Of a stretch of 64,000 nucleotides of DNA, positions 2,211-55,600 are shown one piece after another. Numbering within the stretch: the stretch's first letter is position 1; the number at the start of each line of letters is the position of its first letter. Under the pieces are notes generated by a model. It ran no database searches, was not told the origin of the DNA, and saw only the letters and a program-made list of their open reading frames with translations. Made by a program: the position numbers and the translations under genes. Source of the DNA: Ruditapes philippinarum (Eukaryota); assembly GCF_026571515.1 (NCBI RefSeq), contig NW_026860885.1, forward strand, positions 1 to 64,000, in the 5' to 3' direction.

Positions 2211-2808
2211 GACTCTATGCTATAGTAATTATTACCTTACTGTCTTTGTTATACATGTATGTATTATATGTAAATATATGTTAAAATGCATATGATAAAA
2301 CTTTTGTAATATGTTCTAGATATGTGACATCTTTATCATTGATGTTTATGTATTAAGATGGTATACGTATGTACATGTCTAATTAAATGTCTTTCTGTTC
2401 TGTTCATAAACAACAACAACAACAACAAAATTTACAAAATGTTTGAACGTGTAAAAGCGTGTCAACTTTAAAGAACAAATGTACGGAAGCCCTGGAGGGA
2501 CATTTATTATTTAATAATTATTACTTATTACTTAAAACCAATAATCATTATTTAGCACATATACCCCGTTATTTATAATTTATTACTTATTACTTATTAC
2601 CTATTATCTATAACTTATTATCTGCCAGTGGCGGGAAATAATGAACACATGGTGCAAAATGGATGTCAAAAGTACACTTCTGTGAAAAGTTACATTGTTA
2701 CGCAGCACAAGACAAAAACCAGTAACAGAGGGTATGTAATGTTGTTTTTTATTAAATCAAATCCTATATGTGCTGGTGTATCTTAAAAGTTACATGTATA
2801 TACTTGAG

Positions 2809-3311
2809 AAATAACATCGGTCTGAGTGGTGTTTATCGGTTATTAAACACAAAATTAACCAGGAAGGCCGTTTTCCTGAGTGGTAACATTTTGCATCAAA
2901 ACGACAAATAGGTGTTTAATAGCCGATAAAGACCGCTCAGATCGATGTTATTTTGTTTCTAACATGACCACAAAGAGCAAAGTAATGGAGATTATTGAGG
3001 CTTTTTTTTCAAGCGGATATTATTTCCGCTGCCAATTTTCACATTTGGCTGTTCTATTCAACATCCTCCATACACTATGGTAATTAACAAACAAAAAATA
3101 ATGAAGAATGCATTTTTATTTCAAGTATCGTACGTTTCTGTCTTATTTAAGTATTTTTTACATCGGAGATAGATAAATCAATTTTATCCCAATTTTATCA
3201 CCAACTCATATAACTTCTATATGATGTAATTCTGGCGCCTTCATGCATGCCAGAAATAACGTCATCAGCTGGTTCTAAATATTAATGAATTTATAACATC
3301 AGTTGAATAAA
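2809..3311 (+). mobile_element. Hairpin-headed non-autonomous element (Crypton-like architecture), partial
   Basis: AAATAACATCGGTCTGAGTGG..TATTAAACAC (2809-2850) pairs imperfectly with GTGTTTAATAGCCGATAAAGACCGCTCAGATCGATGTTATTT (2912-2953). The 3' boundary is uncertain. Confidence 0.55.
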
Positions 3312-3457
3312 GGTAAAAATAAAACTCAAAACTCGGCGCAAGTATCGATCCCTTTGTGCTACTTATGCATGTTACACAATGGAAAGGGAAAATATCAATG
3401 AAAAGCATAATTAATGTAGTAATATTTATCAATCTTTTTTTGTAAATTGCAGGTCAG

Positions 3458-5225
3458 ATGGAAATGCTTTGGAGTGCAAGGGTTGTACTGTTCTCAACAA
3501 TTCTGATAAGCCATGCAGGAGCTGTTGTACCTCATAAAACACCACCAGTGAATCAAAATAAACAGTCTAGACTAAATTTGGTGAAAGAATATTTCAGGGA
3601 TGGTTTTAAGTACTTTGAAATCGTTCTTCTTTTATTTTCTCAACACAATATTAAAATCAGCATACGGCACTTGAAGCGAATATTGAAGGCGAATAATTTA
3701 TGCCGCCGAGGAGATGTTCTTACCGCAAATGATGACGTTATTAAAGATTTGATAGAGAAAGAACTTCAGTACAGTGGAAATTGTATCGGCTATAGAAGTA
3801 TGTGGCGTCGTTTAATGTACGACTATAAATTAAAAGTTGAGAGGCATGATGTAATGCGGTTAATTAGAGAAATAGATCCTGAAGGGGTACGCTTGAGAAA
3901 GGCCCACAGGCTAATTAGAATGAAATATTGTGCACAAGGCCCCAATTATATTTGTCACGTTGACGGATACGACAAACTTAAACAATTTGGTTTGTGTATT
4001 CATGCAGCAATAGACGGGTATAGTCGTAGAATTATCTGGTTAGAAGTTGGGGCAAGTAATAACGATCCAAAATGCATCGCTGATTATTATATTGAATCGA
4101 TTAAGACTTTAAAACTTGTCCCTCGTATGGTTAGAGCTGACTGTGGCACTGAAAACACACACATCAGTTTTCTACAACCCTTACTTCGACGGAACCACAA
4201 TGATTCAATGTCTGGAACCAATAGCCTATGTTTAGGAGAAGTACCTCGAACCAACGAATCGAAGCCTGGTGGAGCTACCTGCGACGTCAAGGAATACACT
4301 GGTGGATAAATAAAGTGAAAGATTTGCGAGATACTGGCAAATTTAATCGCTTAATCCGATACATAGAGAATAACAGGTTACTGTCTTTTGAGAAAGGGTT
4401 TCTCAGACGAGGTTAGATATGGTCCTGGAAGGGGCGAGGCTTGCCGAGCCCCTTCCGGACCATATCTAGCCGAGTCTGAGAAATCCCTTTCTCAAAAGAC
4501 AGTAACCTGTTATTCTTTTTATCATGCCTCTATTATGATTTTGCATCTTATTTTTTTAATTCGGGGCGCTAATTTCTGAAAGTACGGTAACCACAAGAGG
4601 GTTATACGCCAAAACAGTAGTCCTAGGGTTTTTACCAATAATTTTATAACACAACGCAATTTTTGGTACAATTTGCTTTAACAATTTATTTACTGTGTAT
4701 TATCATAAATATTCAGCAAAGTCAATTAAACAATACCAACAATAAACATCATCAGTGCTGATCTTGCGTAGGAATATAGTGTTCTCAAGTCACTGACTGA
4801 GAAAGGTTGCTGTTCTCAGACAGGCTTTATCAGGCAGTTGTCATAGTAATGGCATGATAAATATAGAGTGTGTCCGTTTTTGCCTTATGGATGTTCTGCA
4901 AGCAGAACTAGACCGTATTGCAAAACACTGGAATTTACACAATATCCGACCTCAGAAAAGTGTAAACGAACTTCCTTCTGGTAAGCCAGATATATTATTT
5001 TACGTTCCAGAATTATTTGGTGGATACGAAATGGGGAAAAGTGTTGACGATATTGAACTAAATCTTTGCCAAGAAATGTATGCTACCCCCAAACAAAAAG
5101 AGAGAGCAGAATTCCATGAACTGGCATACCTTCTTAAGCCAAATCTACAGATCCCGTGTAATGCAAATGATGGTTTAAAGTTATATGAAGAATTGATATG
5201 CCTTTACGATCAAGAATGTGACTAG
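3458..5225 (+). pseudogene. IS3EU DDE transposase (integrase-like), disrupted by a frameshift and a 500-bp insertion
   Basis: Motifs GYRSM, HVDGYDKLK (D), HAAIDGYSRRIIWL, RADCGTEN (D), STSNQRIEAWW (E, after a frameshift at ~4228) and WNLHNIR..PSGKPDILF. Acceptor TTGCAG at 3447-3452. Removing 4369-4868 fuses ...RYIE to CVRFC in frame. Confidence 0.9.
4369..4868 (+). mobile_element. 500-bp hairpin plus second-IR non-autonomous element inserted in the transposase (Crypton-like)
   Basis: Near-perfect palindrome at 4368-4515. Second IR pair TTTATCATGCC (4518-4528) and GGCATGATAAA (4851-4861). Flanked by direct ATAGAG (4363-4368, 4863-4868). Its removal restores the host reading frame. Confidence 0.8.
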
Positions 5226-5638
5226 CATATGCGCATGAACAGTAGCATACTGAACATATACATATATATACGAATGATTGCATAAATGTCTTTTGATAAT
5301 TTAAAATAAAGTTGTGATATATTCAATAACTTGAGTATTAAATGGACACAATTTTTTTGCTTAACATTACTTCTATACAGCCTCTTAAATACTATAATTT
5401 TCACTTTAGTCTTTATTTGCATTATAAAGGTTTGCTTTACTGACAATTGAGATATATAAGAATACACTTTTGTATGGTACTTGTGTTATTTAATATCTAA
5501 TTTACGAAGTATTCTTTTGTATTATAAGTGTTTCTTTGTTCGACAACTACCGAAAATGAACAATTGTCTGTAGACACTGGAATCTAAGTAACCCAAATTC
5601 GAAGGGTCCTTAAAGCGACTAGCTAACATATTTACGGA

Positions 5639-6035
5639 ATTTATCTCGAAAGATAATATTGCATCATTTTCATAAATGTATTTTTCACACACCCGTGCCG
5701 ATTTTGAGACTCCGTAAAAATGCTATTGCGCGGCCGTGCATATATTTTGACGTGACGTTATTAGCGTTATACAAATATAATGTAAAGAAACGCTGAGTGT
5801 TAGCGTTATACTATAGGTGCGTCAATGGAAAATTACTCTTATTTCACTTTTTAAAAACGGTATTTATATTGTGTATGTGATAAATAGAATATTAAATTCG
5901 TGTAAGTTCATTACTGAATTTATTGCACTCGTTGAATAAAATAATATTATGTATGCCAGAGGCTCGCATAATATAATTTTATTCAACGAGTGCATTAAAT
6001 TCAGTATTGAACTTACACTCATTCAATATCCTCTA
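5639..6035 (-). mobile_element. Hairpin plus second-IR non-autonomous element, reverse orientation
   Basis: Palindrome arms at 5900-5942 and 5976-6018. Second IR ATTTATCTC (5639) and GTGATAAAT (5877). Confidence 0.6.
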
Positions 6036-6119
6036 CATGTATATACAACTAAACCATTGATACATGTCTTGATTCAGCAAGATTATTTAACCGAGTTTCA
6101 ATTTTTTATTAGTATTAAA

Positions 6120-6500
6120 TTTTTAGCTTGTCTATTCAAAGTATATGGACAGCTGTCCAATTCAGCCAGGCGTCCGCGTCCAGATTTCAGATTAAAGATT
6201 TTGTGCAGTTAAATATTTTTTTCTATAACTTTTTCTTGAGTTATCAACTTCAAACATACGTTCCATATCATCAACCACATTTTATGTGTTAAGGTTCATA
6301 ACTCTAAATGCAATATTTTCAGAATTATGTCCCCTTGAACATAGCATTTTCCTAAAAAATATTATGTTTTACTGTAACTTATCAGGAATAAAATTCATTG
6401 TTAAATTTATGACACCCTTCACCCAAGGAACAATCCTGGCAAGTTGCGTTGAAATTGGACTTGTGGGTTTTAACAAAAGGATTTTTTAAATTCACTATAA
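6120..6500 (+). mobile_element. Degenerate HINE/pearl-like (Helentron-associated) fragment
   Basis: TTTTAGCT.. start, GGCGTCCGCGTCC microsatellite-like block and a CATAACTCT...AATTATGTCCCCTTGA core motif. Confidence 0.45.
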
Positions 6501-7582
6501 CATATGCACGCACAAACATGAATCGCAAAATATGGCAGTGGCACAAAGAATTATAAATTTTAATTTTACAGGATTCGGACCAGGGTCTCTAGTCTGTTTA
6601 TAAACGAGTAATGCTTCAATTTGTACAAGACTCAGATGTATGATTTTATTGGCTCTTATGAAATGCTTTTACTTTGGCCTATGGAAGGAGCTGTTATCAT
6701 TAGCAGTTAATGTCTTGTTGTGTTAATTAGTTTTATTTTGATTCGTAAAAATCAAGTAAACTAATACATGTATGTTGTTATATTTGTATTTAATAACATT
6801 ATGTAAAAAGCATTTGCATTGTGATATTATTTTCACGAAATTGCAGCTTGTCCCTTAGCTTTATTGGCAATACTAAAGCCCGAATTTCGAATATCGTTGT
6901 GGTCTACATTGATGCTGTATTCTTTTTCATTCATTTATATATTTTCAAAATGTTCCTACAAGAAGAACGTTCACCTGTAAATGAGTATTAAGATTGGTAT
7001 TGGAACTGTTGTAAACGATTATCCTATTGATTTTATCCATATTACGTTTATCTATTGCACAGATTGATTGTTTTTACAAAGTGTACCAGTATCCGGATGT
7101 TGAAAGCTATTTGATTTACTGCAATTACTGCTGTCACATGGCCATCTAACTTTTTATGAATACTTTACCATTACTTTGCATGGCTTAATAAACCTGATCC
7201 TGCAACATTTCATAATTTTGCTGTTTAGGGTGTTCTTTTGGGTTTCAGGTTTTCTCTATTTCAAGGGGAAGTAACTCATGTTTACAAAATTATTTATTCT
7301 TTTCTGTCTATCTTAATTATTACTTACTATTTTTGTAGTATAAAATTTACCAGTTGTAAAATTGTTTAGTGGATATAAAAATGTATAAAAATATGTGCAT
7401 TTGCATGTCTCATCGTTCAATTCATACTTTCATTGCATACAACAAATGAAATCCCTAATTGATGCTTGTCACATGATGCTCTGAAAAAAAAAAATCTTAA
7501 AACACTGTCTCTGTTGAATATTTTTCAAGAGAACATTTGCAATGGTCATTTCTAATGTTATGTTAAGAAGGCAATATGTATA

Positions 7583-9474
7583 GGATATCGACCGAGTACG
7601 AGGTCTTTCTGTTTAGGAAAGAACTGGTCACGAATTTCATGTGACACCGAGAGCGCGTAGCGCTCGAGGTGTTTCATGAAATTCGTGACCAGGTCTTTCC
7701 TAAACAGAAAGATCGATGTACGAGGCCGATATCCAACTTACACACCGTTAAACTATTGGCTTGAGCTGCATTTGATGTAATGCACAAGATTACTTTTAAC
7801 ACAGCGCATATACAAGTAAGCTTTTATTAACGTTCTGTTTAAATATATAATTTGCATTTAACTCTGCTTTTCCCTTTAAAATAATAATCAAAAAAGCTAA
7901 GTGTGTAATTTGTCAATAATAAAGTCAATGGGTCTGTAATGGAAGGTATGTAAAAGAATGAATAATTATGTTGATAATATTTCGTATCAGACATTGTTGT
8001 TTCTAGGACATTTGCTGCCGGACAGTTGGCCCCTCGGACGTTTGCTTCCTGTTTTTTTTTGCTATGGCAACTTGTCATATGTCAGAGGGCATCTCTTGTA
8101 TAAATTTTAAGTATGTAATTTAATAATGGAAACGTTCTATTTCATTTATTTATGGATGTTATTTTGTTTTCACAAATTTGCGCGAAAGTTTGTGTATTGA
8201 AGCACAACGGAATTTCGACAATAGAAGATGAAGTTTGGTATCAATTTAACAATGTAATATTTCAACTTTTTTAAAACGGGGTGGGGGGTGGGGGCAAATG
8301 TACGCCCCTTCCAAGGATATGAAGGGTGCAAATGTCCACCACAGCAAACTTCCGAGGGGGCAAATGTCCGGATACCCAGGAGACTACGAAAGACTTGCAT
8401 ATGAATATTGTTGTCTGAGATACATGATCCTATATTATATTTTATATAGCAGATTATAAATTGTTATGGAATAAAACATGATCGTTCAGCATATAAATTT
8501 GTATACTAAATCACCTATAACGTTATTAACATTTCTTTTAATCAAGAATTCTTTTAATAATACAGTTTTACCGTTTCTATCGGTATTTAAAATTATAATG
8601 GGAGATGTGCCCACCCTACGTTGACCAATCCACTTTAAGTACTTGTATATGCATGATACTATATAGCAAGTTTTGGAGTATATTTATACAAAATTCTTTT
8701 AACGTTGTTGTGTAGCATTCTTTGAGACTAAGTCCTTGCTTCGACGGTTTTCAGGGCATATCTGTTTTGATTTTTCGCCGGTTGAACAGAACGGCAATGC
8801 TGCCAACACAAATAGAGCAAATAGAGGGGGAGGGGATAAACGGGGATTTAACAATCTGAGTGATCCCGCGGTTGGGACTTCGCTATTAACAGTGGGTAGC
8901 TGCGGTTTCCAATGCAAAGCATATTCAAATAGGCATTATTTTAATCACAAATTCGTTTGAAACGGACATATTCTCGTTATATTTTTTCGATATGATTTTT
9001 CGGTACAATTTTTATGTACTATGGATTTTTTAGAACGTTTAAGATGTTTTAAATGAATTTGAAGCGTCTATTTTTGTTACATTGTGAACTTAATGACAGA
9101 AGATCCGCTTACATTAATATTACTTTGAAAAACTTTGATACCCTGTCCATAATTTTATTCAAATATTTGATATAGGGATGTTGGAATTATTGCTAAGTGC
9201 ATTCATTAAACATCCAGATTTTGTAGGTCATAGACAGGAATGTTATGACAATCATATACATTTTATTTTCATTTTCATTTTCTATTGCATATCATGTTGT
9301 CTTTGCATGCGCATAGGCAGGTCTATTTTTTCACGCGTTTTTCATGACCGGGTCTGTCTGACTAGAGCAGACCTGTGCACGTGCAAAAGATAGACCTCAT
9401 AACGGACTTTCTTTTGTTTAACAGGTCTATCCGAAAAATATAGACCTGTCACAAACAATAGAGGAGGTGTGTAA
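7583..9474 (+). mobile_element. 1.9-kb hairpin plus second-IR element (Crypton-like) with a nested insert
   Basis: Palindrome at 7583-7734 with a central GAGCGC-GTA-GCGCTC mini-hairpin. Second IR TTACACACC (7738-7746) and GGTGTGTAA (9466-9474). Confidence 0.65.
8000..8378. mobile_element. Small MITE-like element with inverted subterminal GGACATTTGC/GCAAATGTCC repeats
   Basis: Three GGAC(A/G)(G/T)TTG motifs at 8007-8045 and three GCAAATGT(A/C)C motifs at 8294-8370. Confidence 0.55.
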
Positions 9475-9959
9475 CCTTTGTTCATATTGTATCAAAAGAC
9501 CCGATTCAGTTAGTAGAGAAAATGTATCTGTCTCTACTCCCCTAAAGATATAAATTAATAACAGTCACTGTCTACAGTCTACACTGTGCTGGCAACGGCA
9601 TCTTGCAAGATCCGTGCAGAAGAAATCCGCGAGATAACCGGACTTGAAGATCATGTATAAGTATGCAGGCGAATCCAGAATGAGTTGTCGTAAATGCCAG
9701 ATATTTGGCTTGTACATGTGATAAGGATTACTTTAAAATATCAAAATAAGACAAAAATATTGCGCTAATTTTCACTTACTTATTTTAATTATTAAATTTT
9801 GTCATAATTTTTACTTATAAGCTTAAGCGTTAGATAGTGCCTCTAAAGCGCATTCGTAACAAAGCACAAAAAATCGATAGTTAAAACTTTATTAAGCTTT
9901 TGAAATGTAACCGACAACTTTTTTTACATAAAAACTACAATATATAATTCACTTTAATA

Positions 9960-10055
9960 CGGAAAACAAGAACACAAAAGAAAGGCAGCGTTCAATGAAC
10001 ACAACCCCACACGACCAAGCGTTCAATGAACACAACCCCACACGACCAAGCAAAA
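9960..10055 (-). repeat. Retroelement 3'-tail fragment (GCGTTCAATGAAC motif), internally duplicated; other copies at ~22790-22850 and ~62620-62655
   Basis: AACAAGA..AAGG(C/A)..GCGTTCA(A/T)TGAAC is shared by three loci. A ~32-bp tandem duplication occurs here. Confidence 0.6.
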
Positions 10056-12609
10056 CATAATCTGCAATCTATTCAAAACAATTAAACATTAAAAGTCGAG
10101 ATCCTACTACCATAAAATGACTTCAGTATGGCGAAAGTTCTTTCAGCTTTTCTTATATTTCACTCGTATGGGATGATTTAGTGCAATAATGGGAATAAAT
10201 ATTTTAATGAAATGTAGTTACAATTTCTCTTAAGAAATGACAATAAATATTTGTAGAAATTTATAATACCTTTATTTAACACAAGGTTTTTAACAAAACG
10301 AGTATAGTATATAAACATAAGTGTGTATTAATAATTTCTGTAAGCTCAAAAGCTAATTCTTAAAGGAACTCAACTGAGATTTTTGATATACTGAAATTGA
10401 TTTTTTTTTTGGATTTAAAAGGACTTTAGCATGTTATATTGAAAAAAATATGAAATATTGTCAGGCATCCTATAATAAGATGATTCAAGTCGTCAGTTTC
10501 ACACCCATGAATAATATTCGGTCCATGAATGAAGCAAACAACTTGATTTGGATCAAAATTGACTTGTGGGAAATAGTAAACATTTTCCTTGTCTACCAAA
10601 TATTCTTTATTGTCTTTCTGTACACTAATTACTGAATAGCCATCATTGAAAACATTGTATTCTTCAAGATCATCTTTTGCCAAAGACATAGCAGTTCTGT
10701 ATGATTTAATGAAAATGGAACTTCCTGTATCAGCATATACAGATTGTGTTTTTTTCTCATATGATATTTCCAGCAATCCAGCTTTAATGTTGTTTACAAG
10801 GAAATACGGACCTTCTTCTTTTGTTTTTAAACATTTATCTGTATCCGATTCTGATTTCATTTTCGTTCTTAAGTATAAATGACACTGAGATGGGTACAGT
10901 CCATAAGCTTTAACATACTCTGTGAAGCAACAGGGCAGACCATTTCTGTCTGTGAAGCCTGAAATTTCTTGTCCAGAAGCTGTGACAAGCGTAACAGCCA
11001 TTTCCTCTAATAAACCAAACTTGCTTTTGCCATCCTTTAAGTAAAATGCTTTCCCTTCTACGAGTATTTCATCTACTGTTACTTCTTCATCAGAATTCTT
11101 GTATATATATATTGTGTACCACCTCCATTCCTTTGCATAACAATTCTGTATTTCCCTTTGCTAAAATGTTGCCAACCTATGGGCACCTTGTATTCTGACC
11201 TCCTTCCACGCCCACGACCACTTCTAGTATAAGGACTCGTGTGCTAAAAACAGAATAATATTTAGTTTATAAATTAAAGAAGCCATGTAAATATAATTTA
11301 TCATTACTTATTTCTATACTTTTATTTGTTGTTACTAAATTGTTATTTGTAAGGAGTTATAGATCTATTATAGACTTGGTTAATTGCAACAATGGCAAAA
11401 AGGAGAACAAAGAAATTATTCTAAAAATGTTATTTTAAGTCATGTTTTCAGTATGTTTATATTAAATTGAATTGTTCATTACTCAATACTGCTTCATAAA
11501 AAACTATAATATAGTTGTAGCTATCATTACTTGGTCTTACTTGTTTTATCTTCATTAATATCATTTAATATAAGTTCTTAATAGACTGCATACATCACAT
11601 GACCAAAGTAAATATATGTTTGTCCATATAGCAAACGACAACCATAAATACCAATCTATATCAAATTGATTATGTTGAAATCAAGATAAATTCAATATTT
11701 GCTGTCATAAAACTGGGTGGTGACCCTGACCTATATTCTTTCCAAGTTTCCAGGTCTTAGAAAAGTAATGATGCAACAAGAAAATCATGCATGAAATTAT
11801 AATATTATCACCAAAATTAACTGAGGGTGATAAACCTTTTCTGACTTTTTTCAAATTTGAATATGTTACAAAGACCTGCAGAATTGAACAAATAACCTTA
11901 AAGGTAAATGTTATCTGAAGGTGAAGGTCTTGCTCAAATTGCTTAACATATCAGTTTGTCAAAGGTACTCAATTACGATTAGCATCTGTCAAGTATTTTC
12001 ATAGTTCTGACAATTTGCGCAATTCAATGAATTGGCCTTGATGCCCAAATTCCTATATGAATCATTCATTATGTGCAATTTGTCAACAGTGTTGTTTAGT
12101 CTCAGAATGATAAATAATAATTCAAATAAGAACAATGCAGCATTACATTTAGCAAAATTCAAGAATTAACCTCTAAAGTTGAAGACCATATAAATGTCAG
12201 GATCAAGTTCAGATTGATCAAACTATAGGTACTTTTTAAATGGGTGTTAAGCATGAACATATCAAACACTTTACAGACATGTTTTGGTCAATTTTAGCAA
12301 ATTCAATTTCGTGATCAATTACATCAAGTCTGTTTTCTTGTAAACGTCAAGTTCAGTTGGAATATGATAATGGCATCGAGCATTGTTATAACAATATTTT
12401 TGCCATTAATTGCTAAATTCAGGCAATATTTCACAAGTGGACCTAAAATATAAATCAATGTCAAATTCAGTTTGGGATATTGGAAGCTCTTTTCCTAAGA
12501 GTTATTGTTTTAAGTAAGAAGACAATCCAATCATTAATAACAAATAATGAATACGTAAAGTAATAAATTCTATTACTTAAAGTTTTAAAAGAGCATAATT
12601 CTAGTCAAA

Positions 12610-13472
12610 ACAAGCAATTATCATAGTATTGCAAGCAATCCATAAGTCCCCTACCGATTAGAACCCCAGCAACATTCTGATGGGCCATTGGCCATTCAAT
12701 TTTACCAGTGAATGAACTAAAATCTTTTGAGTTCGAAGTTTGTCTATATCACAGTAATGTGTTAAGTTTCCCTGCCTTAGTAAGTAAATTATATTTATAC
12801 AACCTTGTCATATTATTATGATGTGGGATTTTAAAGTGAATCCTATTAGGAATGAAGAAGTTGGAGTAAAAAATACCAATTTCTCGAAAAAAATCTAAGT
12901 TCAAGGGGAACATAATTCTGAAAATAGTCATGCTAGAGTATTTAACCTTCTCAAAAATGTTGAGTGATAATAAGACACATATAAAAATATTATATGATGT
13001 TTGAGGAACATACATTAGGAAATAAAGAAGTTATTTAAAAAAGACACTATTTTTCATAAAAAATCTTAGTTCAAGGGAGTTAATACTGATACTTTTTGAG
13101 CTAGAGTTGTAAACCTTGTCGCATATGATGTGGATAATGACAAGAAACTTATATTTAAAGTTTGAAGTAAACACCTTAAGAAATAAAGAACTTATGGTGA
13201 AAAAGCTGAAAAATCTAAATCAGAAATCTTGAAATTCAGGCTATTTGTTGCCATAGCAACCAGAATTTTCAACATAGGAACAAAAGGAAAAGACGTGCAT
13301 AATTTCCATACTGCCATCTATCCATATATTAAGTTTCATAAAAATATTTTTAGTATTTTTTGCGTTGTCGCGGGATCCAGTTTTGTGGACGGACTGACGG
13401 ACTAACAGACAGACAGACGGACGGAGGTTTAAACCTGAAGTCCCCTCCGGTTAAACCGGTAGGGGACTAATT
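12610..13472 (-). mobile_element. HINE/pearl-like non-autonomous element inside an intron of the IS3EU partner gene
   Basis: AAGTCCCCTACCG at ~12645 matches the terminal hairpin AGTCCCCTCCGGTTAAACCGGTAGGGGACT (13439-13468). (GACA/GACG)n microsatellite at 13388-13425. Two core repeats containing TTCAAGGGG/TTCAAGGGA. Confidence 0.7.
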
Positions 13473-13640
13473 AAGACCTATTACTTAAGACCTATTACTT
13501 AAGACCTATTACTTAAAATTTATTACTTAAGACTTATTACTTAAGACCTATTACTTAAGACCTATTACTTAAGACTTATTACTTAAGATTTATTACTTAA
13601 GATTTATCACTTAAGACTTATTACTCAAGATTTATTACCT
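13471..13640. repeat. 14-bp tandem repeat (TTAAGACCTATTAC)n, ~12 copies
   Basis: The periodicity is directly visible. Confidence 0.9.
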
Positions 13641-15639
13641 ATCATTAAAGGCGTATAAATGTATATCCATATTGGCTGTGTAACCTAGTTTTTCTAGTAA
13701 CCTAGTGTAACCATATTTGACACTGCCCTAGAAATCATCAGCACAACCTTTTACACCAATTTCCAGGATATTTTGACTGAAACAGTAGTCTCTATAGTGT
13801 TTTTTCCATATTGGAAACCTATGGCCATCCAGGCTGGGGTCAATTTTGACAATTTAAAATAATTGGTGACACTAAACCTCTTTAAAAAGCATATTCATTT
13901 CCCAAATGAACTAACTTTTGCAAATAATACATAAATAACAAATTCTGAGAATTTTACTTTCCATCATACCTTTGAAAGAGATTGCCTTTCAGTTTTTTAA
14001 GTGGCCATTATGCTTTGTACTAGCTGCTGTTACTTCTGTTTCCGCTTTGTACGATCCTGCAAAGCATAAAAAATACTTTACTAACTATTTCTTATCTTTA
14101 AAGGTGATTCTTTACCTTGTCTGATACTAAATAAGGTTTATACACTGCCACCCTGCTATAAAATTAGCCCCATTTTAATGCCAAGTCCATTATAATGCTC
14201 AAAGAACAAACTTGGTAAAGATTTACAATGTGATCTTTGTGTTGACATATCATTTATCAATCTAACATTTTATATTGAATATATACACACTATTTATTGC
14301 AAAAAACAATACTTATGGTACTTTTCCTTATTTATACATCCAACATCAAGTATCATTTCAATGTGTTCTTTGTATGTATGCAGTCTTTTCAACTTTTAAT
14401 CTTCAAACTTTCTATTAAGCTACCACTCAGAATAAGTGTAGACATATTATCATCTGCTCTGCAATATACGCCCGAATTTATTGCAGGAGGCCACATTAGA
14501 AAGAAAATATCAACAACAGATAATCAATCTTTTAAATGAAAATCTAAAAGAGGATGAGTTTAAATAAAAATGAGAAGAAATATCGGTATGCAAAATGATT
14601 TTTAAGTACACAAAAGACAAAAATAACAATAGAAGAAAATGGAACTTATGTACTTCCGGTACTTTCCGTACATAGCTCTGGGGAGTGTAATAATGAACTT
14701 TTATGGTTTTGGCCTTTCTTGAATTAAAGTGAAATAAAAAAGTTATTTCTTTGAAGATTATATAGTTAAATATCATTGTTCTGTATGAATAATTCCATAC
14801 AAAAAGTAAAGTAAATACACACATTTACGCATAAAATATCTCTATTTATTATGGAAGATGTCACAATGACTGTTTTAATTTAATTGATTTTCATTATAAA
14901 CATTTTTTTTTGAAAATATGCACCTCATATTTTTCATCTGAAACGGTAAAATAATGAAGAAAAATAGAAATATCATGTAAGTGTGTTGTGTACTTCATTT
15001 GGTACACAGCTAAATCCATAACGTACCGGAAAACGGTATTTAGCTAGGTTTTCGAAAAGGTCCAATCCAATACACTTAAAAACTTTCTCAAGGCTTTACT
15101 TAACAGAATGGGATGCTTTAATTATAATCAGGAACCTAGAGCAAATAATATATGAAATAAAGGTCGCTGTTTCATTGCCGCAGATAGTCAGAATACTAGA
15201 TCTAAAATGACCCTGTACCTACTGCTGTAATCGGGACATTTCTTTTTCAACAAAATTGAGAACAAGAAAAATTGTTTCCTATTTAACGTCAACAAAAAGG
15301 TTTCAATAAAGTAGAAATTATTCCAAACAGCGTGCAGTTACATTTAATTATTGACTTATTAATGTATCATACATACCATCTGTAACTGATCCTCAACTTC
15401 ATCCTTTTCGGTCATCGCCTCAATTAAAACATCTTGTTTCTCCCGCCAAATATAGCGCGGTTCAGATAATATGTAAATAATATGTCATAATCTTTAAATA
15501 ATAAGTTATAAGTTATAGATAATAGGTAATAAGTAATAAATTTTAAGTACTAAATTTTAAATAATAAATGTCCCTCCAGGGCTTCCGTACAAATGAGTTC
15601 AAGCATACATGTTGTCATTATCGCAATTTTTTATCTGTT

Positions 15640-43600: not shown

Positions 43601-46600
43601 CATGATTGGCCTTTAAAGTAATATTTTGATATCAGTTAACTTCTCTAGAAATGAAACATTATATTACTTACTTAAAGGGGTAAATGATATAAATCTAGTT
43701 TAAGTTAGTAATTGATAAAATATCAGTATGAATACAGTTGCAAATAATAGTAACTTAATTGAAATAATAATGTTTGTAAATTTAGTTGTTATACATTCGT
43801 TAAACTACCAATGAAGCAGTTTTATATTTAGGAAGGGAACGGTCTATTTTATTAATGTGTCCATGATTTTTAAAACTATGCATACATTTTCAGATACAGT
43901 CAAGGAGAAAAGAACTTAATTAAACAGTGGTTGAAAGTGTTATTGTCTTCGTAAAAGCTTTTCACCAACTTGACACACTTTTGTTTATCACGAAATAGCA
44001 AAAACCCCACATATAACGTAAAACCATTCTTCACTTTGTGTGTTGTATATTTTGTGGTGCTGTTTATGCCTTTTGTTAAACATAATTAAAGATGTTACGG
44101 AATCTGTGAACAAAACGGGACAACCCTTTAAATTTGGATTGTACTCGCATGTCATTTGAGTACTTTAACACCGAGGAACTTTGGGAGACCGAAGATTGTT
44201 ATAATAATGTCGATTTTTTTGTATGTGAGAAACCCTATCCAGTGGACGGTATAAACACAAAGCTTTTTTTTTTATTTATTTGTATTTATCAACATTTATT
44301 ATAACACACAATTAAGTCGTAAGGAAAATACTGCAATAAGTTTCTCTGTCTGTCAGTCCGTCTGCCCTTCAAAGTTTGTTTGTCCGAAACATACGTTTTC
44401 TACATAACTTTTCAATTTTATATAACTGTTTGATACAAATATAAGCTTCGCTGTAACAAAACGATCTTTAATGTCCATGAAGAGACTCGATCAAACCGAG
44501 CCCGAATTATTGTCGGTTTTGCCGTTTTAGACGTTATTTAGGGCTAACTATAGTTTTTCTCTATTTACATTCAGTACTATCATGCAAAAAATAGTAATAC
44601 TTGTATCATCCTTTAATATTATTACTTTTTTCTGAACACAAGGCACAGAAACAATTATATATCTTTGTACTGTTTACTGAATACTATATAAAATGCTTTC
44701 TAGCCGATATCAAGGAAGAAAAGTGTAAAAGTCTACCTAAAAAGGAAGACCACAATGCTTTACCATACTCCGGGAGATCTTGTCAAAATTGGCAAAACCT
44801 ATCTAACAATGCTAAAAATGATTTTGACAAGATGTTTTCCTCCATACGTATCTCGTTAGAAAATTCCAATGTGTGCGAGAATTTTGGGCAGGGTATTTCA
44901 TGGTGCTATGTTAATGATCCTGGCGAATTTATACGGGAACCATGCTTTTTGCATCGTAAGTTGTTAATTAAACATATGAAAAAAGAAATTGAGATTCAAG
45001 AAAAATATGTATTTGTTTTGACGAAATGTGCATTATCTTTAACAAGATGTCATTTCGTTTCAACGAATTATAATACTCGTATATATAGCAACAAAAAAAT
45101 GTTTTAATGTAATGTTAGGAAATATGAAATTATATAACATTATTAAGTTATTTCAATTTTATCGACGACCATCTAAAATCCCTTAAATATTATTCAAAAC
45201 GACTTCTGTGCATACAAGATAACTACATGTTTTTTCTGTTTTCCACGTACCTTTAAATAGAAAGCAAATTCGATTCAGACAATGACAAAAAACCTGTGTT
45301 TTGGAAGAGAATGCCTGAAGTAAATTGCTCTGACGGATCTTCAATACCTTTAATAAATTGGTGTGATAGAAATTTTGACTGTTTAGACTATTCGGATGAA
45401 TTGTCATGCCAGAATAATATCAAAGGTTTGTACATATTTTGTTTTATGTAAAATAGTTATATTGTTCTTAACAGGGTGTTAATCAGTTTTTGAAGTGGCA
45501 ATGTCTTTTTAAAGATTCGTATGCGGAAACCCTTAGTGATAAATAAGTTTCTACCGTTTACATCATGGTCAGATTCAATGATTTCATACATTCGTTTGTA
45601 ATTTATTTAAGTGTGATCACAATTGTTTTAGCGATCGATATGATACTGATAAATCCTTGCTTTGACCTTTGATTTGAATAACAATAAATTTAACCACAAA
45701 CATTAACATGTGCTTTCTTGTTAAAGTGACATTATGTCCAGCCAAGGGTAAGTAGTGAGTGAACAGGTGAATATCAAAATAAGTTTTCATTTTGCCATAA
45801 TTATTTTAAAAATTTAATAATTTACTTCATATAAACAATGAATGATGAACCTATAAATAAAATTTCTGTAAATGTCTATTAGAATTTACCTATAATGCCA
45901 AGTTTATATAAAGAGTGGGACAGTCTTTCTATATTTTAGGCAGATTTATATTTTTTTTTTTAATTTGGAATCTACTTTGTACTTAGATCACAATCTCGTG
46001 AATACCATGACGAACTCTAATTTAACTCAACGTCTAAAAAACGGGACATACTTTACCTGTAAAAATAGCAGAGAGCAGATATCGCTTTTAGCAAATTGTG
46101 ATGACGTCATCGATTGTCTTGATGCTTCCGACGAATCCGGTTGTTTGCATAGCAATATAGGTATTTTGTCTTGTTAACTGAAACTTGAAATCTACTACTC
46201 ATTTTTTATATATATATTTTTTTTTTTTGAATTTCGAAAAGTTGTTCTCATTTAACATTTTCTAATGTGTTTAAATACAATGTACAAGTAAATATCTTCA
46301 ATAAGCATATTTTTGCTGTGTTGGTTGTGTTGATAAGTATATTAAGTACATTTTGTATATCTGTATATTTGTTTAGGAAGTTATTTAAACATAATTAAAT
46401 AATGATTTCGTTAATCATAAGAAAGCATGTAAGCATGTACATTTTGTTACTTTGTTTCACTGTGTCGTGATAACCGTGTCCTTATGAAAGACATACTTGG
46501 TTCATATTTAATGTATTTTAACATAAACTTGTACAATATGAGTATAGAATGTGATGAAAACGAATTCTCGTGTGATGGCGGACATTGTATACAATTAAGT

Positions 46601-49600
46601 CAAGTTTGTGACTTGATATCCGACTGCGCGGACGGAACAGATGAATTTTGTGGTAAGATAATAAATATAATAGATCCTCAATTCCCCTCATGTTGACCGA
46701 TCTTTATTAGGTGTTCAGTATCATCCATGTTGACCGATCTTTTATAGATATTCTGTTTCTTCTATGTTGATCTATATTTAACAGATATTCAGTTTCCTTC
46801 ATGTTGACCAATTTTTAATACATATTCACTTTCCTCTTTATTTTCAGATCTTTAATAGATATTCCGTTTCCACCATGTTTACCAATATTTAATAGATGTT
46901 AAGTTTCGACCGATTGACAAATCTTTAATAGATATGAAGTTTCCTCCATCTTTTCCTATATGTTGACCGATCTTTAATATATACCAAGTTTCGTCCGTGT
47001 TGACCAATCTTTAATATGTATTCAGTTTCATCCGTATTGACCGACTCTTAATAGATATTAAATTTCCTCCATTTTGACCGATCTTTAATAGATATTCAGT
47101 TTCCTCCATTGCGACCGATCTTTAATAGATATTCAGTTTCCCCCATGTTGACCAATCTTAAAAAGATATTCAGTTTCCTCTTTGTTGGCCGATCTTCTAT
47201 AGATATTCAGTTTCGTCCATGATTAAAGATCTTCAATTTCTTCAATGTTGACCATTTTAATCGATATTCAGTTTCCTCCGTGTTGACAGATCTTTGATAG
47301 ATATTAAGCTACACCCATCGTGTTGACAGAACTTACCTCCATTTTGACCGATCTTTAATAGGTAATTCAGTTTCGTCTTCGATCTTTAATTGATATTCCT
47401 CCATGTTGACCGATCTTAGTAAATAATCAGTTTCTTTCATGTTGACCGATCATTAATAGATGTTCATATTTCTTCATTTTGACGGATCCTTAATAGATGT
47501 TCAGTTTCCTTCGTGTGACCGATCTTCGTTGATATATCATTTTTTGCCTAATTTGATATTAGTAAACGTGTGACTAATCTACTCATGATAACAGATCTTT
47601 ATAAGATATTCAGTTTCCTCTACGTTGACCGATCTTAAATAAATACTAAGTTTCGTCCGTGTTGACCGATCTTTAATGGATATCTAGATTGAATTTTTAC
47701 ATTGTGTTTACAGATCTTCGAAAGATATTCAGTTTCCACTTTGTTGACCGATCTTTAATTCCTCCGTGTTGACCGATGATGTATTTTCATTATTCGCCAT
47801 GTTGACTGATCTTTAATACCTATTCAGTTTTCTCAGTTTTGACCGATCGATAATAGATAATCAATTTCCTCTGTGTTGACCGAGCTTTGATATTTCAATT
47901 TTTTACTATTAATCATCTATACTCTATAACGAAAGAAGGCCTTGGACGCCTCAAGCTGGCACTTGCTCAAACTCCTGTCGAGATTCCCTCAACTAGTGGG
48001 AAAGCCAACTAACACAATATAATCCAAAGTCTATGAAGGGATTTGGACCATTATTAGCGGTTTATATACTTTTAACGAATAGATAGTGAGGACAGGTTTT
48101 TATATTTAAAAAATAAACACGATTCACCTAGAGTGATTTGCCGACATTTTATTTTCATCAAACATAGTTACTGTGAGGGCAGTTAATTCACAGCGTTATT
48201 TCTACGTCACGAAACTATTCAAATTACGAAAAATGAATGTCAAAACATATATTTGATTATCAAGCTTAGGGATAAAAAATTATCTAGGGACGATAGAGTT
48301 TGTCAGACAAATAGTCAAGTTATTACCATATTTGGACTTTGACTTGATGTTCAATATACTAGGCAATTTTATTCGTCAAACTTCTCAGTTAAGCACATAA
48401 TTCAAACCTAATGAAACCATTTACGATCGATCATTTTAGATTTCCAAGCGTGCAAAGTAAATGAGTTTACTTGTGAAAATAAGCAGTGTATTTCTGAAGA
48501 GAAGAGATGCAATGCTGTATCCGACTGTTTCGATTATAGTGATGAAATAAATTGTGGTTTGTATAATTAAGATATTGCATTATATAATAAATCAAGTTCA
48601 GAAATGAGAGACATGTCTAAGCACCTTCGCTTCTATGGTCTCAGGATAAGTCAACAAAATCGGGTTCTTTGCTAGATATATTTATTCAGTCTAATATAAA
48701 ATATACATGTAAACATGGACATGAAAAAAGATAGGCATCATAAATATATTACAAACAATATCATTTTACATAAAATTAATATTAAACAAATCAATTTTAA
48801 ATAAGAATTGACTTATTTAAATATGGTCATGTGCTGGAGATCTCGGCAAGCCTCGTTACTGCCCAATGGGCGGATCCCCTCGGCACGGATATTCTAATCC
48901 GAATTGCAACAAATGCTAGATATCATAATGTCGTTTTTATCTATACAAATCAAGACTCCTGTAAACACTCATTTCTCTGTGCTGATGATTACAAATGTAT
49001 CCCTCTACGACTGACATGTGATCGCTACCCTGATTGTAAAGATGCGAGTGATGAACGACATTGTCATGTTAATCCCCCAACTTCAAATGTCTTCACTGGT
49101 AATGACTATCTATGGTCTTTGCACACTTTTACAGGTAAGCGACATTTTTATACAATATAGTTATAAAAGTGGATTTTTATCTGTATATTGAAACTTCATG
49201 ATGCAAGTCTATTATTTGTTTTGTTGTTTGTTTGTTGTTTTTTTTTTTTTTTTTTTTTTTTTGTTTGTTTTATTTTTAATTGATTTTTTTTTTTTCGTAT
49301 ACTGTAACGCAACTGGGAGTTGACAAGACACAACGGATAGGGACCAAGTTAAGACCAATATCAAAATTTAAATTTCATTTTTGTCAATATTCCTTCTCTT
49401 TTAATTCAATAAATTTAACATTCAATACTTACTGGAAAGAAGACTGATCAAAAGACACATTTACTAAAAAAAAATGCTATGACCGTTAAAAATGTGTCAA
49501 GATATCTGAAGTTGGCCCTATCTTTGTTAATTATATTATTACACTTTATATTTATTTATATTGATTAATAATTGTTAATCGGCGGTATGTAACATTTTGT

Positions 49601-52600
49601 TCATAGACGAGATTATAGCATGTTATGATCAATGTGAAATTTACAAAGCAATGCAAAATAAACGGGATAACTTGATAGTGAAGCCTGAAACAGTCTTTGA
49701 GACATTTTAGTTAAAAGAAAGTATAGCAAAATGTTTCATCTTGTTCTTTTGTTGTTTTTCTTTTAAAGACTATTTTCATTGAGTGATGCTACATGTTTTG
49801 GGCGTGGTAATTCAGTGCGGTTTATTTAAACAGTATAACTTTTTAGAAGAATAAAAAACGACCCCTAGTTGAAAATATATGTCTAACATACAATGTTTTG
49901 TTAGGGTTGTGTTATTGGAACTGGGATTTCTGGGGGAATTCATCGAAAGAAAGCATATCTGGATGCACGTCTTTTGCAAAACACGAAGTGTTTAATCCGC
50001 AACGAGAAGTCATCATTGATTATAGCATTTATTATTCTTGTTTTACTCAGGTAAGGTCTGCTTTTAACATATAAATGTATGTGCATAATTTTATCACACG
50101 ATGCATTGTTAAGGGAAATGTTTGAACAATTGCTAAAAAAAAAAATTTCTTTTTCTTGTTCTTTTTAACTTCTATTGATCTGAAAAAAACATGGCTATCT
50201 TTTCCAGAAAACGTATCTAGTCTTAATATTGAGCCTCATCTTTAAAAGCATTTATGAAAATTAGTTTTAAAAGTATTAAGGCCGTTCGTTGCATATAAGT
50301 AAGTAGTTTATGGTCTGCGGGCAATGATTGTCATCAAAATCAATACCTCAGTACATCCAAATAAATATGCCTAAATTAACGGTAATCCGTCCACCTCGTC
50401 ACGTTGGAAATCCAAGTGGTGCACTTTAACGAGCACTTTATTCGCTATTTCTATTCAACGAGATATCCTTAATATTGAATGTTTTTTTTACTAACTAGTT
50501 TCACACATATCTGTCGGGGACCTTCGAGCAATGTATTGATGAGTTTCAAAATCCTTAAGCCGATAAATGTATATAATAAAAGTTTGAAAATTCATCCGAA
50601 CTTTAAGAGATTTCCAAAATCAATGAATTACTAACAGTATAAAAATCTGGAAACAAAGTGATCCCTCGGAAGCATTAATCACAACAAAATTACAAGAGAA
50701 TTGCAGACTCGGTTCTATTGAGTCTGTACATGAGGGATAATGAATAGGTGCAACATCCCTCACGCCCCTTAGCACCGACTTGAGCGGTACTCAATTCTCA
50801 ACACTTAATAGTGCTGGCATCAATGATCCCGAAGGACCAGAAAAATATAACAACACTGAAGTGAAGTACGGGGCAACTTTTTACAGCTGCCACACAGCAC
50901 TTGACACCTGCTGTTGTGAAGTATAAAAATCTGGAAACAAAGTGATCCCTCGGAAGCATTAATCACAACAAAATTACAAGAGAATTGCAGACTCGGTTTG
51001 ATTGAGTCTGTACATGAGGGATAATGAATAGGTGCAACATCCCTCACGCCCCCTAGCACCGGCTTGAGCGGTACTCAATTCTCAACACTTAATAGTGCTG
51101 GCATCAATGATCCCGAAGGACCAGAAAAATATAACAACACTGAAGTGAAGTACGGGGCAACTTTTTACAGCTGCCACACAGCACTTGACACCTGCTGTTG
51201 TGAAGTATAAAAATCTGGAAACAGACTCGGTTTTATTGAGTCTGTACATGAGGGATAATGAATAGGTGCAACATCCCTCACGCCCCCTAGCACCGGCTTG
51301 AGCGGTACTCAATTCTCAACACTTAATAGTGCTGGCATCAATGATCCCGAAGGACCAGAAAAATATAACAACACTGAAGTGAAGTACGGGGCAACTTTTT
51401 ACAGCTGCCACACAGCACTTGACACCTGCTGTTGTGAAGTATAAAAATCTGGAAACAAAGTGATCCCTCGGAAGCATTAATCACAACAAAATTACAAGAG
51501 AATTGCAGACTCGGTTTTATTGAGTCTGTACATGAGGGATAATGAATAAGTGCAACATCCCTCACGCCCCTTAGCACCGGCTTGAGCGGTACTCAATTCT
51601 CAACACTTAATAGTGCTGGCATCAATGATCCCAAAGGACCAGAAAAATATAACAACACTGAAGTGAAGTACGGGGCAACTTTTTTACAGCTGCCACACAG
51701 CACTTGACACCTGCTGTTGTGAAGTATAAAAATATGGAAACAAAGTGATCCCTCGGAAGCATTAATCACAACAAAATTACAAGAGAATTGCAGACTCGGT
51801 TTTATTGAGTCTGTACATGAGGGATAATGAATAGGTGCAACATCCCTCACGCCCCCTAGCACAGGCTTGAGCGGTACTCAATAAATTTAGGTCATACTGT
51901 AATACAGGCTCACCTGGCTCTGTTCTGATGGCTAGAGCTTATCATTTTAGGCTTAGCCAGCAGATAAAACATCATATCCAATAATTACATGTATATAGAT
52001 TAAACCTATATGGGATACATGTCGATCTAATACTGGATTTATTGAACAAGTTGAATGACATTATATAATCTAAATATCAACAAGTTCAATGTAGTAATAA
52101 AGCTACACTCATATAGTGTAATATTATCAAATAGTGCGTTTTACTCTTTGCCTTATGAAGCAAATGACGCCTCGTCAAAATACAGGCATGGCTGTTAAAT
52201 ACAGAGTCCCAAAAACTGCACGGGTATGTGAACTGATCTAAATAATGAATCAAAAGTCAACCCAATAACAAAATTATCTCGTATTTATAAAAGTGTGTGC
52301 CTGTTATTATTTTGAAGTTGTATTGCGCCTAATACGTACATTAAATATAACAATATCAGACCATTATTTATATTTCCTCGATAAAGTGCGTGTTGCAGGA
52401 GAATAATTCTCGCTTCCCACTTCTTCGATATAAACTGTTCTCATAGGAAATAAAATAAATAAGCTATTTAGTTAACTATTGATGATTTATTTTTACCGTA
52501 TATATCAAATGTAAAATTCAAATGACTTACTTTTTGTATAAATAAAATAAGAAAATCGTTGTCAAAATCATTATATATAATATATAGGTATGCAAGTGGA

Positions 52601-55600
52601 TGAAGGTGTTAATTTTTGTTTAGGTACAGATAGAGTGTGGATCCCATTTTCATGATGCAGATCTTGATCTCTTCAATGATTTCGAATATGAGTTTTGTTA
52701 CTGCATACTAGGTACAGTCAGATATAAAGTAGGGTCAATTGTGGGCAGGTATGTGTTAACTATATTTTATTTTACACGAAAACATTAAAAGACAACTAGC
52801 GTTTTAAGTTTTTTCATCAAATATAGATGCAATGTACGTTAATGATGAGAATGGATTTTTGAGCTTTTCAAGCATTATAAGTATGTTTCCAGTGTATTGT
52901 TAACATATATTTTGTAAAATTGTCAGTCAATTGTTAATAAATTATTAGAGTTTACGACATTTGGTAATGCTGTCATTTTCACTTTCAGAGTGGGTTTTTA
53001 TTGTTATGATATTCCCTGTACAAAACAGTATCTTAAACTTGTCTTAAGCTCGCTCGTCTCTTGTAAATAGTTGGTGGCAAAAGAAGTAAACTGTATAATT
53101 TGAAATGTTATCGAAAAATAAATTTTGCTGTTTTCGCGAATAATAGATTTTTGCGAACGTAAATGTACATCTCCAACTTATATCATTTAGATATAGGTCT
53201 AAAATTAAACTGGAAGTGCCAATATGCTAGCACACCTCTTTATCATTAGAGAAATATTAAGTATGATTGTACTATGTATTAATGATCTTAAGACAATTTC
53301 TAATATACTGTAAACTAAAATAAAGTATAGAAAAATCATAAGCCGTATTGCATAAAAAAGAAGAATGTTTGATGTTAACACATTCAAATTTGCAGATATG
53401 ATTTGGTTTCGGTAACAAGATGCGACGGAAGTCAAATGACAGAAATACATGTCGTTGAGGAAAGTATTTATCTTCAATCAGATTCGGGTAATGACGTGTA
53501 TGTTCCCCCGCCAAGTGATTTATTGGACGATACAAATGCACCTGCTTATTGCACTTATGGTAAACTTCCTTTAGAGTTCTCAAATATAATATAGTGGTTT
53601 ACACATAAGGTTTCCCTTTCTGTCGCACTTGCATGTTTGATGTTAGAAGGAAAATATACCTACATTTCAGTTCTTTTTTGAAACGATATTAATCAACCAA
53701 TTTTTCGTTATTAGGCAATGTTCGTGTAAGTTTCATTTAAGATTTACGCTGCTAAAACTCTAGCTGTCTTTTGTAAAATGTTATATGCAGCGTGATTTTA
53801 TATACAAAACATCGTCTTAATGTAGCATTTGAACTGTAGTCGTGTTGTGATAAATTTAGTTGCATGTATAATGCTAAGATAAGTATATGTCAAGGAGAGC
53901 GATGTTCAGAAAACGCAGTACCCAACAATGACGAGCCACACAGGATCATCGTTAAGACACCTTCCAGGTCAACAAACAAAAGGAAGGAGGGCACGTGAGC
54001 AAGACAAGGAAAGGGTGTTTTGTGATTAATATCATATTCTGTTACATACGGCGAAAGCAAAAAAATAACGATTTAAACCGCTTGTGAAGTTTTACAAGAG
54101 AGCTAGGTGTCTTCTATAATTGAGTAATTATAACAGTTTTGTTTATGAAAAGCCATGTATTCCATTGTTATATTTTATTAAAGGGTACAATATGACTGAA
54201 TTTGGTGACTTCTTTCATTGTAAGAGAGATGGAAAAATCATACCAAAGTCGATGAGATGCATTTATGCTGTAGATAATAGCGGGTACATGACAGGATGTA
54301 GATCTGGAGACCATTTACAAAATTGTGGTAATAAAAATATTTATCTGATTATAAGTATGCTATCTGACATAGAAATGAAAACAATCTTAAACTTATTGAA
54401 CAAACACTGTTCTTGCGCTTGATATTATCAGCAACATCTCAATAAATAATTAGACAATGAGCTTTCATAGAAGACAATAGCTGGACAATTATTCTTGAAA
54501 TATTAAAAACAAGTACGTGTTATATAAAGCATAGTCATCGGGTTTATTTAATTTCTTAATTACAAATTATGTTTTCGATAGTTACATTATGATATTATAT
54601 CAATAGTTTTAATAATGTCATGTTACAAAGATAATAATATTATAATCACAATACTATATTTCAGTTATTTAACCCTCCCTCAAACAAAATGGTATGTTGT
54701 ATCATGTTCATGCACTGAGGCTTTCCAAATGGCTAATGAAATGCAGGTTGTGCTACGTTTTTGGTTGTCTGCTTCAGTCTGCATTCTGGGGGAGCCACTA
54801 AGGTTTTCATCCACAGTTAGGCTAAACAGTCGCTATATGACATCAATATGTCACTACTCTGTGACCGTAAATGCATCAAAGTGAACTATCAAAATGTATT
54901 GTTTAAAATTAATTTCTCAAGATTCTAATATAGTATTTGAATTTCAGAAAAAATCAATTGTCCTGAAAATACAGTCAAATGTCCTGGAAGTTATTGTATT
55001 GAGCAAAGATTTCTTTGCGATGGACATACTGAATGTCCTGGAGGAGAAGACGAACAAAATTGCAGTATTTGATTTAAAGCTCTTTTTTCTTTTGTCATTT
55101 CTTATTTTGTTTCGTTTGTTTTGTCACAGGTTTTACAGCATTTCTGTCAGAAATTAGCATTTATTAAAAAGTCTGTATAGGAAGTTTATACGAGAAGTAT
55201 TCATAGTTTTACGTCAGATACCGTATTATACCCGCTTTTGAAAAACGGGTCGTATTATAGTTTCTCCGTGGCGGGCGGGGGGCAGCTTGGTGAGCGGCTT
55301 ACAATTTTTGTCCGGAGCATATATCTTATACACATATATGAATTTTAATGAAACTTCATAGAATTTGTTACAACTATGAAACGCTTTGTCGCTGGTCACT
55401 AGGTTTAAGGTCAAGGTCACACTTAAAGGTCACTGAAAAACGCTTGTCCAGAGCAAAACTTCTACGTGCATAGAGGGATTTCTTTATAACTATTTTGGTC
55501 CCTGCAGCCAAGGTCAATGTCAATGTCACACAGGGTCAAAGTTCAGACAGAAATATAAAAATGTGTATTCGGACCATTTAGTCATCATTTATTGAGGGAT

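Follow-up and report, generated by a model that had tools for sequence, protein, structure and literature searches.

Structure of the element and its copies

The window, by which is meant the whole analysed stretch of 64,000 nucleotides, contains between positions 2482 and 15589 a copy of an IS3EU transposon with the termini TAC..GTA, exact terminal inverted repeats (TIRs) of 33 bp and the hexamer CAAATG on both sides as target-site duplication (TSD; Table 1), in agreement with the earlier note, which had described a 13-kb IS3EU element with these ends. Two convergent genes were also found as proposed there: a transposase reading inward from the left end on the plus strand (PF24764, E 1e-14), and a second gene, here called gene 2, reading inward from the right end on the minus strand. 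Both genes are broken, the transposase by 1-bp losses near 4226 and 4347 together with a 498-bp insertion, and gene 2 by premature stops and a 2-bp frameshift near 11105 in exon 3. The copy is an ordinary dead member of a known superfamily.

Table 1. Features of the IS3EU copy, with positions in the window and the basis of each assignment
Feature	Position	Strand	Basis
Left TSD, CAAATG	2476..2481		Sequence
Left TIR, 33 bp exact	2482..2514	+	Sequence comparison of ends
Transposase leader exon, 5' end unmapped	2589..2731	+	X1 contig
Genuine 5'-leader intron with GT..AG borders, upstream of the ATG	2732..3452	+	Joint in X1 and X5 contigs
IS3EU transposase CDS	3458..5225	+	One exon, 423 codons in siblings
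Predicted signal peptide of 22 aa; last residues ..AGA, followed by VVP	3458..3523	+	Rule-based prediction
Nested insertion of 498 bp private to this copy; lies between A and T, lacks a TSD and contains a palindrome	4364..4861		Sibling comparison
Copy-specific 1.9-kb nested insertion	7578..9474		Sibling comparison
Gene 2 exon 3: conserved N-module and second domain	10426..11243	-	Sibling RefSeq models
14-bp tandem array similar to subterminal repeats, within gene 2 intron 2	13468..13635	+	Sequence
Gene 2 exon 2; premature TAA at 14032 and 13999 here	13970..14056	-	Sibling RefSeq models
Gene 2 exon 1, 13 acidic codons	15377..15415	-	Sibling RefSeq models
Right TIR	15557..15589	-	Sequence comparison of ends
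Right TSD, CAAATG	15590..15595		Sequence

Beyond the TIRs, a loose resemblance of both ends extends over about 200 bp (2482-2694 and 15380-15589), and the motif GGCGGGA, which we take to be E2F-like, sits directly ahead of the first exon at each end. Because the ends are alike over this length, motif included, the promoters of both genes seem to derive from one terminal module. The 14-bp tandem array in gene 2 intron 2 is also found in siblings and may represent internal transposase-binding sites or the remnant of a nested end.

A 28-mer of the TIR occurs 80 times in the 1.41-Gb assembly, and its reversed control 0 times. A protein with 100% identity to the transposase of a sibling is recorded at NCBI under Ruditapes philippinarum. 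Twelve other TIR-paired loci were fetched for inspection of their TSDs; a 6-bp TSD was present in nine, the hexamers all being distinct, and absent from three. Six of the fetched loci are close siblings of the copy in the window, and all six have the 6-bp TSD that had been anticipated for other copies; a seventh sibling (C15112) was added later. Flank searches for an empty CAAATG site gave no second locus spanning the junction. The copies of the family are only 0.7-2.6% apart, which suggests that it expanded in a single burst.

Several features are private to the copy in the window. The 498-bp insertion, presumably Helitron/Helentron-like, is missing from all six siblings with coverage of the site, as well as from the contigs of runs X1, X2 and X5, whose status as RNA runs is a guess; it is therefore a nested insertion and not an intron. 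Together with the 1.9-kb insertion, the private insertions total about 2.4 kb. Also missing are 52 bp near 2797 that the siblings have and, near 14654, a segment of roughly 1 kb or longer that is carried by four of the six siblings. Other copies with the same TIR host nested elements as well (L033-L034 on C4410, L039-L040 on C8499), among them mariner-like frames and a frame that is open for 1489 aa.

The transposase gene

The coding sequence of the transposase occupies one exon. The earlier note had viewed this gene, like gene 2, as spliced, and that description agrees with the three exons that sibling RefSeq models give gene 2 and with the 5' leader of the transposase, where the only intron shown lies upstream of the ATG, but not with the coding sequence itself. 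The splice joint was seen in contigs of two studies (X1 and X5, RNA status guessed), with 0 reads in the raw run X21. Raw RNA reads across the element were flat, unstranded and unspliced, and the run search returned no RNA run on record as containing the element. The leader exon contains upstream ATGs at 2641, 2649, 2659 and 2663. In siblings, a 58-aa upstream ORF with a CxxC..CxxC pattern overlaps the start of the transposase (2641-3520 in the window), and in C7464 (L085, about 3150) an upstream frame ends in TAATG, its stop sharing bases with the ATG. A conserved zinc-finger upstream ORF or a programmed frameshift was considered and rejected, as neither is kept in C7464 or C7309.

The three catalytic residues lie at 3962 (D), 4139 (D) and 4261 (E) of the window, corresponding to D169, D228 and E269, which are the same in all 61 aligned homologues. 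The AF2 model of a close homologue, P0002 (pLDDT 85), matches TnsB, IstA and retroviral integrases, and the Atlas search returned unnamed eukaryotic clusters with scores of at most 0.85. An unbroken transposase was found in none of the 10 listed copies of the family in the assembly.

Relationship to IS3EU and other integrase-like elements

Ginger elements end in TG..CA. The present element ends in TACGG..CCGTA and has 6-bp TSDs in the window and at the nine paired loci; upstream of W166 there is no invariant set of His and Cys residues that would form an HHCC motif, and the N-terminal domains of the model are helical. TA..TA ends, 6-bp TSDs and the lack of HHCC are what the covered part of PMC10045372 gives for IS3EU/GingerRoot, whose size range of 4-13 kb (PMC10045372 and PMC6839031, both in part) also includes this element. 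The core is nearly colinear with IS3EU-4_CGi, IS3EU-1_CGi and AD_GR-003 (YDKLK type), its identity with IS3EU-4_CGi in the published alignment (PMC10045372 supplement) being roughly 55-60% by eye. The presence of a transposase together with gene 2 matches the two-protein statement for IS3EU quoted in the covered part of PMC8232023. Based on these features, the element almost certainly belongs to IS3EU, a group whose structure and function are described as mostly unexplored (PMC11934779, in part). The assignment to Ginger, Polinton or LTR-derived elements can scarcely be entertained: an integrase-like core and a 6-bp TSD are common to these groups (PMC6839031, in part), but the ends are TA..TA, conserved HHCC is absent, the core motifs fit the published IS3EU rows and differ from the Ginger2 rows in all motifs (by eye), and the window and six siblings contain no polymerase or RT frame and, apart from the two genes, no long frames in common.

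Closer comparison, again from the covered parts of the sources, was possible with two fungal groups. With the TET+ IS3EU elements (PMC12730594), the element shares TIRs of more than 30 bp, ends of the type TAYGG..CCRTA found in fungal members, a 6-bp TSD and, in its sister families, a transposase oriented opposite to a kinase gene. In the fungal elements the partner gene encodes an alpha-kinase, and a TET/JBP gene lies in between (PMC12730594), whereas neither of these was found here, and the clam sister families have a conventional Ser/Thr kinase behind an N-module and an Ig domain, a kinase that this family has likely lost. Styx/REP9 of Zymoseptoria (PMC8232023, PMC10853768) is likewise IS3EU-related, has 6-bp TSDs and includes broken copies moved in trans; its four ORFs are, however, of other kinds, and a signal peptide of the integrase is not mentioned in the parts covered. 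Within the same genome, a second IS3EU clade (NHKL type, e.g. L191 and L192) has the PF24764 core in common, but has at its start a SAM-like domain, recognised by eye and matched by PF07647 on P0402, and carries a hydrophobic leader in only 3 of 61 members.

Signal-peptide-like leader of the transposase

The transposase begins with a hydrophobic leader, a feature absent from the earlier note, which lies wholly within a spliced exon as judged from the joint in the X1 and X5 contigs. A homologue search gave 423 matches, of which the best 120 are listed (molluscs, corals and a hemichordate); 101 of the 120 reach the anchor column, 69 with at least 34 residues before it and 32 with fewer. The usual N-terminus among the listed homologues consists of a hydrophobic run, a small residue and then V-(V/L)-P. 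An uncharged hydrophobic 9-mer core was present in 58 of the 69 long homologues, compared with 18 of 2210 internal windows (0.8%) and 7.4% of shuffles. The residue at position -1 is small in 64 of the 69 (background 23%) and that at -3 is one of AGSCTV in 64, while the same residues occur at -2, -4 and -5 in only 34, 25 and 41, respectively. The predicted leader has a median length of 22 residues and is followed by a conserved mature start (V in 50 and P in 55 of the 69, positions +1 to +3). In a uniform test of the first 30 residues, 58 of 91 passed against 3 of 61 full-length members of the second IS3EU clade, a control drawn from the same databases; since the homologue rows are related by descent, these leader counts are not independent events. 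With the uncharged h-region and the small residues at -1 and -3 recognised by our own rule, and with internal, shuffled and clade controls, the leader is probably a working, cleavable ER signal peptide.

In the AF2 model of P0002, the leader forms a helix (residues 2-18) followed by a low-confidence linker, and a basic HTH/RRR region comes after the predicted cleavage site. A methionine between the cut site and the HTH is found in only 17 of the 69 long homologues, so that no shared internal start accounts for a nuclear form. The leader is not universal, as the group P0034, P0041 and P0060 begins hydrophilic; many other short N-termini resemble clipped models. A type I membrane topology was rejected, the next hydrophobic helix being too weak for stop-transfer (3 of 69 reach KD 1.6) and modelled within a three-helix unit. 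The leader-less transposase P0041 and a full kinase, P0153, possibly belong to one element in another species.

Gene 2 and its kinase in sister families

RefSeq models of three siblings, mapped onto the window, give gene 2 a length of 313 aa over three exons. A contig of run X1 (9765-11245) ends at the acceptor of exon 3 and runs about 660 bp beyond the stop, which is consistent with a short gene 2 transcript. A SAM-like exon near 14460 was rejected, as it is absent from the RefSeq model and contains stops in six of six aligned copies. The differences among four open copies are mostly non-synonymous, resembling neutral decay.

In the genome, 123 matches to exon 3 were found. Longer relatives were not recovered by a word-index search but were by a full HMMER scan. 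Sister ORFs that are 30-40% identical to exon 3 continue, at the point where gene 2 stops, with an Ig-like domain, followed by a repeat linker and a kinase. Exon 3 itself has no Pfam match, whereas the sister ORFs match PF00069. The profile search (HMMER) gave 1690 matches, of which the best 150 are listed, and 42 homologues, chosen among the longer ones with the multi-Ig giants excluded, were scanned; PF00069 was found in 25 of these 42, in 23 above its cut-off, and the catalytic motifs are present in most of the 23 kinases checked. The named homologues come from clams, an oyster and a sea anemone, and the closest solved structure for the sister kinase is the Raf-like CTR1 (E 1e-35). Of ten kinase loci in the genome, nine have an IS3EU transposase facing them no more than about 10 kb away, and four of the ten lie inside TIRs with 6-bp TSDs. 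As judged from these matches, the second protein in this lineage is normally a protein kinase. The earlier note had called the function of the second protein unclear; its nature is no longer wholly so, given the Ig domain and Ser/Thr kinase by which the sister families extend what is here a 313-aa stub.

A search with the kinase profile gave no kinase remnant in this copy or in seven siblings. The family falls into a 20-row clade together with the three clam families that are linked to a kinase (FastTree with midpoint root, support 90), in a tree of our own rows without named reference sequences and with the inner branching of the clade in no resolved order. The kinase was likely lost in this family rather than never present. 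Loss of both Ig and kinase is likely and the simplest reading; the evidence from C7464, where the copy has the Ig but not the kinase, and from C13348, where neither an N-module nor a right TIR lies near the kinase, is partial and counts against it. That the copy in the window defines the full architecture of the family, with two spliced coding genes, is a claim of the earlier note that fails and is very improbable: both ends, the TSD and two convergent genes are indeed present, but so are two private insertions, and absent are segments carried by siblings and the Ig and kinase of the sister families.

Fold searches with gene 2 matched only the Ig part (Z 7.2, rmsd 2.6, 68 aligned). A lead for the N-module is a TDP-43_N match on 2 of the 42 homologues, and a complex prediction for the C7464 transposase with the N-module of its own gene 2, in which alignments were unused, had a score of 0.00. 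Downstream of a distant transposase (L141-L142 on C2610), convergent exons match CIDE-N (E 5e-12) together with the same N-module, which suggests another type of partner. For most of eight further families whose transposase frame is open, no partner was identified.

Possible roles of the leader and of gene 2

The leader and the animal kinase partner were not found in the IS3EU/GingerRoot literature searched. A signal peptide and a eukaryotic-type kinase partner are absent from the covered parts of PMC10045372 and PMC6839031, a term search of the latter giving 'signal' and 'kinase' 0 times, and the leader and animal kinase were likewise not found in what was covered of PMC10853768, PMC4455052 and 10.1101/2021.09.26.461848. 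Both clade-level features, the leader and the Ig plus kinase partner, are thus apparently undescribed within this partly covered literature. The leader presents a paradox, namely a nuclear DNA-cutting enzyme with a conserved predicted export signal.

DDE enzymes bind the TIRs, cut, and join the ends at a staggered target, which gives rise to the TSD. If the signal peptide works, it would route most of the newly made transposase into the ER, only molecules that escape this targeting or return from the ER would get to the nucleus, and the upstream ORFs would cut the output further. Provided that the signal peptide works, it is fairly probable that throttling of transposition is the main role of the leader, a role favoured because the transcript contains upstream ATGs and the element carries no way of its own back across a membrane. 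Simple disposal does not, however, require the conserved mature start V-(V/L)-P, one group of homologues is leader-less, and only 17 of the 69 long homologues have a methionine before the HTH.

It is unlikely that the leader instead tethers the transposase to a membrane or the nuclear envelope, or that it merely arises from gene calling or from an overlapping frame. In many clam families an intron directly precedes the leader or lies inside it, T-rich intron ends translate as hydrophobic runs, and in this family the upstream ORF of 58 aa shares sequence with the leader. Here, however, the whole leader is in a spliced exon, and the cysteine pattern of the overlapping ORF is absent from two sister families that keep the leader; an artefact would not yield the -1/-3 pattern and would strike the control clade too. 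Tethering is opposed by the weakness and modelled packing of the next hydrophobic helix.

Less probable still is a delivery tag, by which the transposase would be secreted, trimmed to V-(V/L)-P and taken up by other cells, for instance from soma to germ line. The strict -1/-3 pattern, the lack of a shared internal start codon and the basic HTH/RRR region after the leader would suit such a route, and it is retained as a candidate because the mature start is conserved. Nevertheless, neither gene contains an uptake or membrane-crossing module, no precedent was found in the literature searched, and both the leader-less group and the second IS3EU clade do without a leader. Its wider form, in which a large animal IS3EU clade would use secreted transposase for cell-to-cell or soma-to-germ-line transposition, with no particle and with the kinase as an optional regulator, is equally improbable. 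If true, either brake or delivery would be a form of control of transposition not found described for DDE enzymes.

Taken as a whole, the reading towards which we lean is that of a decayed IS3EU/GingerRoot copy, with transposition likely throttled through the signal peptide and the Ig and kinase of gene 2 likely lost. The burst of the family would have come after the loss of the kinase, and because of this order an own kinase would not be needed in cis; the family would represent a natural kinase deletion that spread regardless. A sister kinase may act in trans, and if any part of gene 2 matters it is most likely the N-module, which has been retained. The kinase gives a name to the 'second protein' of this lineage and, together with the fungal alpha-kinase, points to a general plan in which a transposase is paired with a convergent enzyme that modifies proteins and sits on a conserved N-module. 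The results also show that many clam kinases annotated as 'uncharacterised', and many annotated proteins that look secreted, are transposon genes.

Other elements and genes

Two elements of 5.1 and 5.7 kb (L131 on C4971 and L134 on C11557) have a TIR, a 6-bp TSD and an open transposase frame, with a second gene not recognised. Close TIR pairs in the same direction are found on several contigs. At C12824:291443-313427, a 22-kb kinase-bearing IS3EU lies 26 bp within the TIR of a second IS3EU, with the TSD CTTTTG, and a third IS3EU adjoins. In the window itself, a multi-exon receptor gene extends over 44598-60195 on the plus strand, with kringle, LDLa, LRR and 7TM matches, and is presumably GRL101-like.
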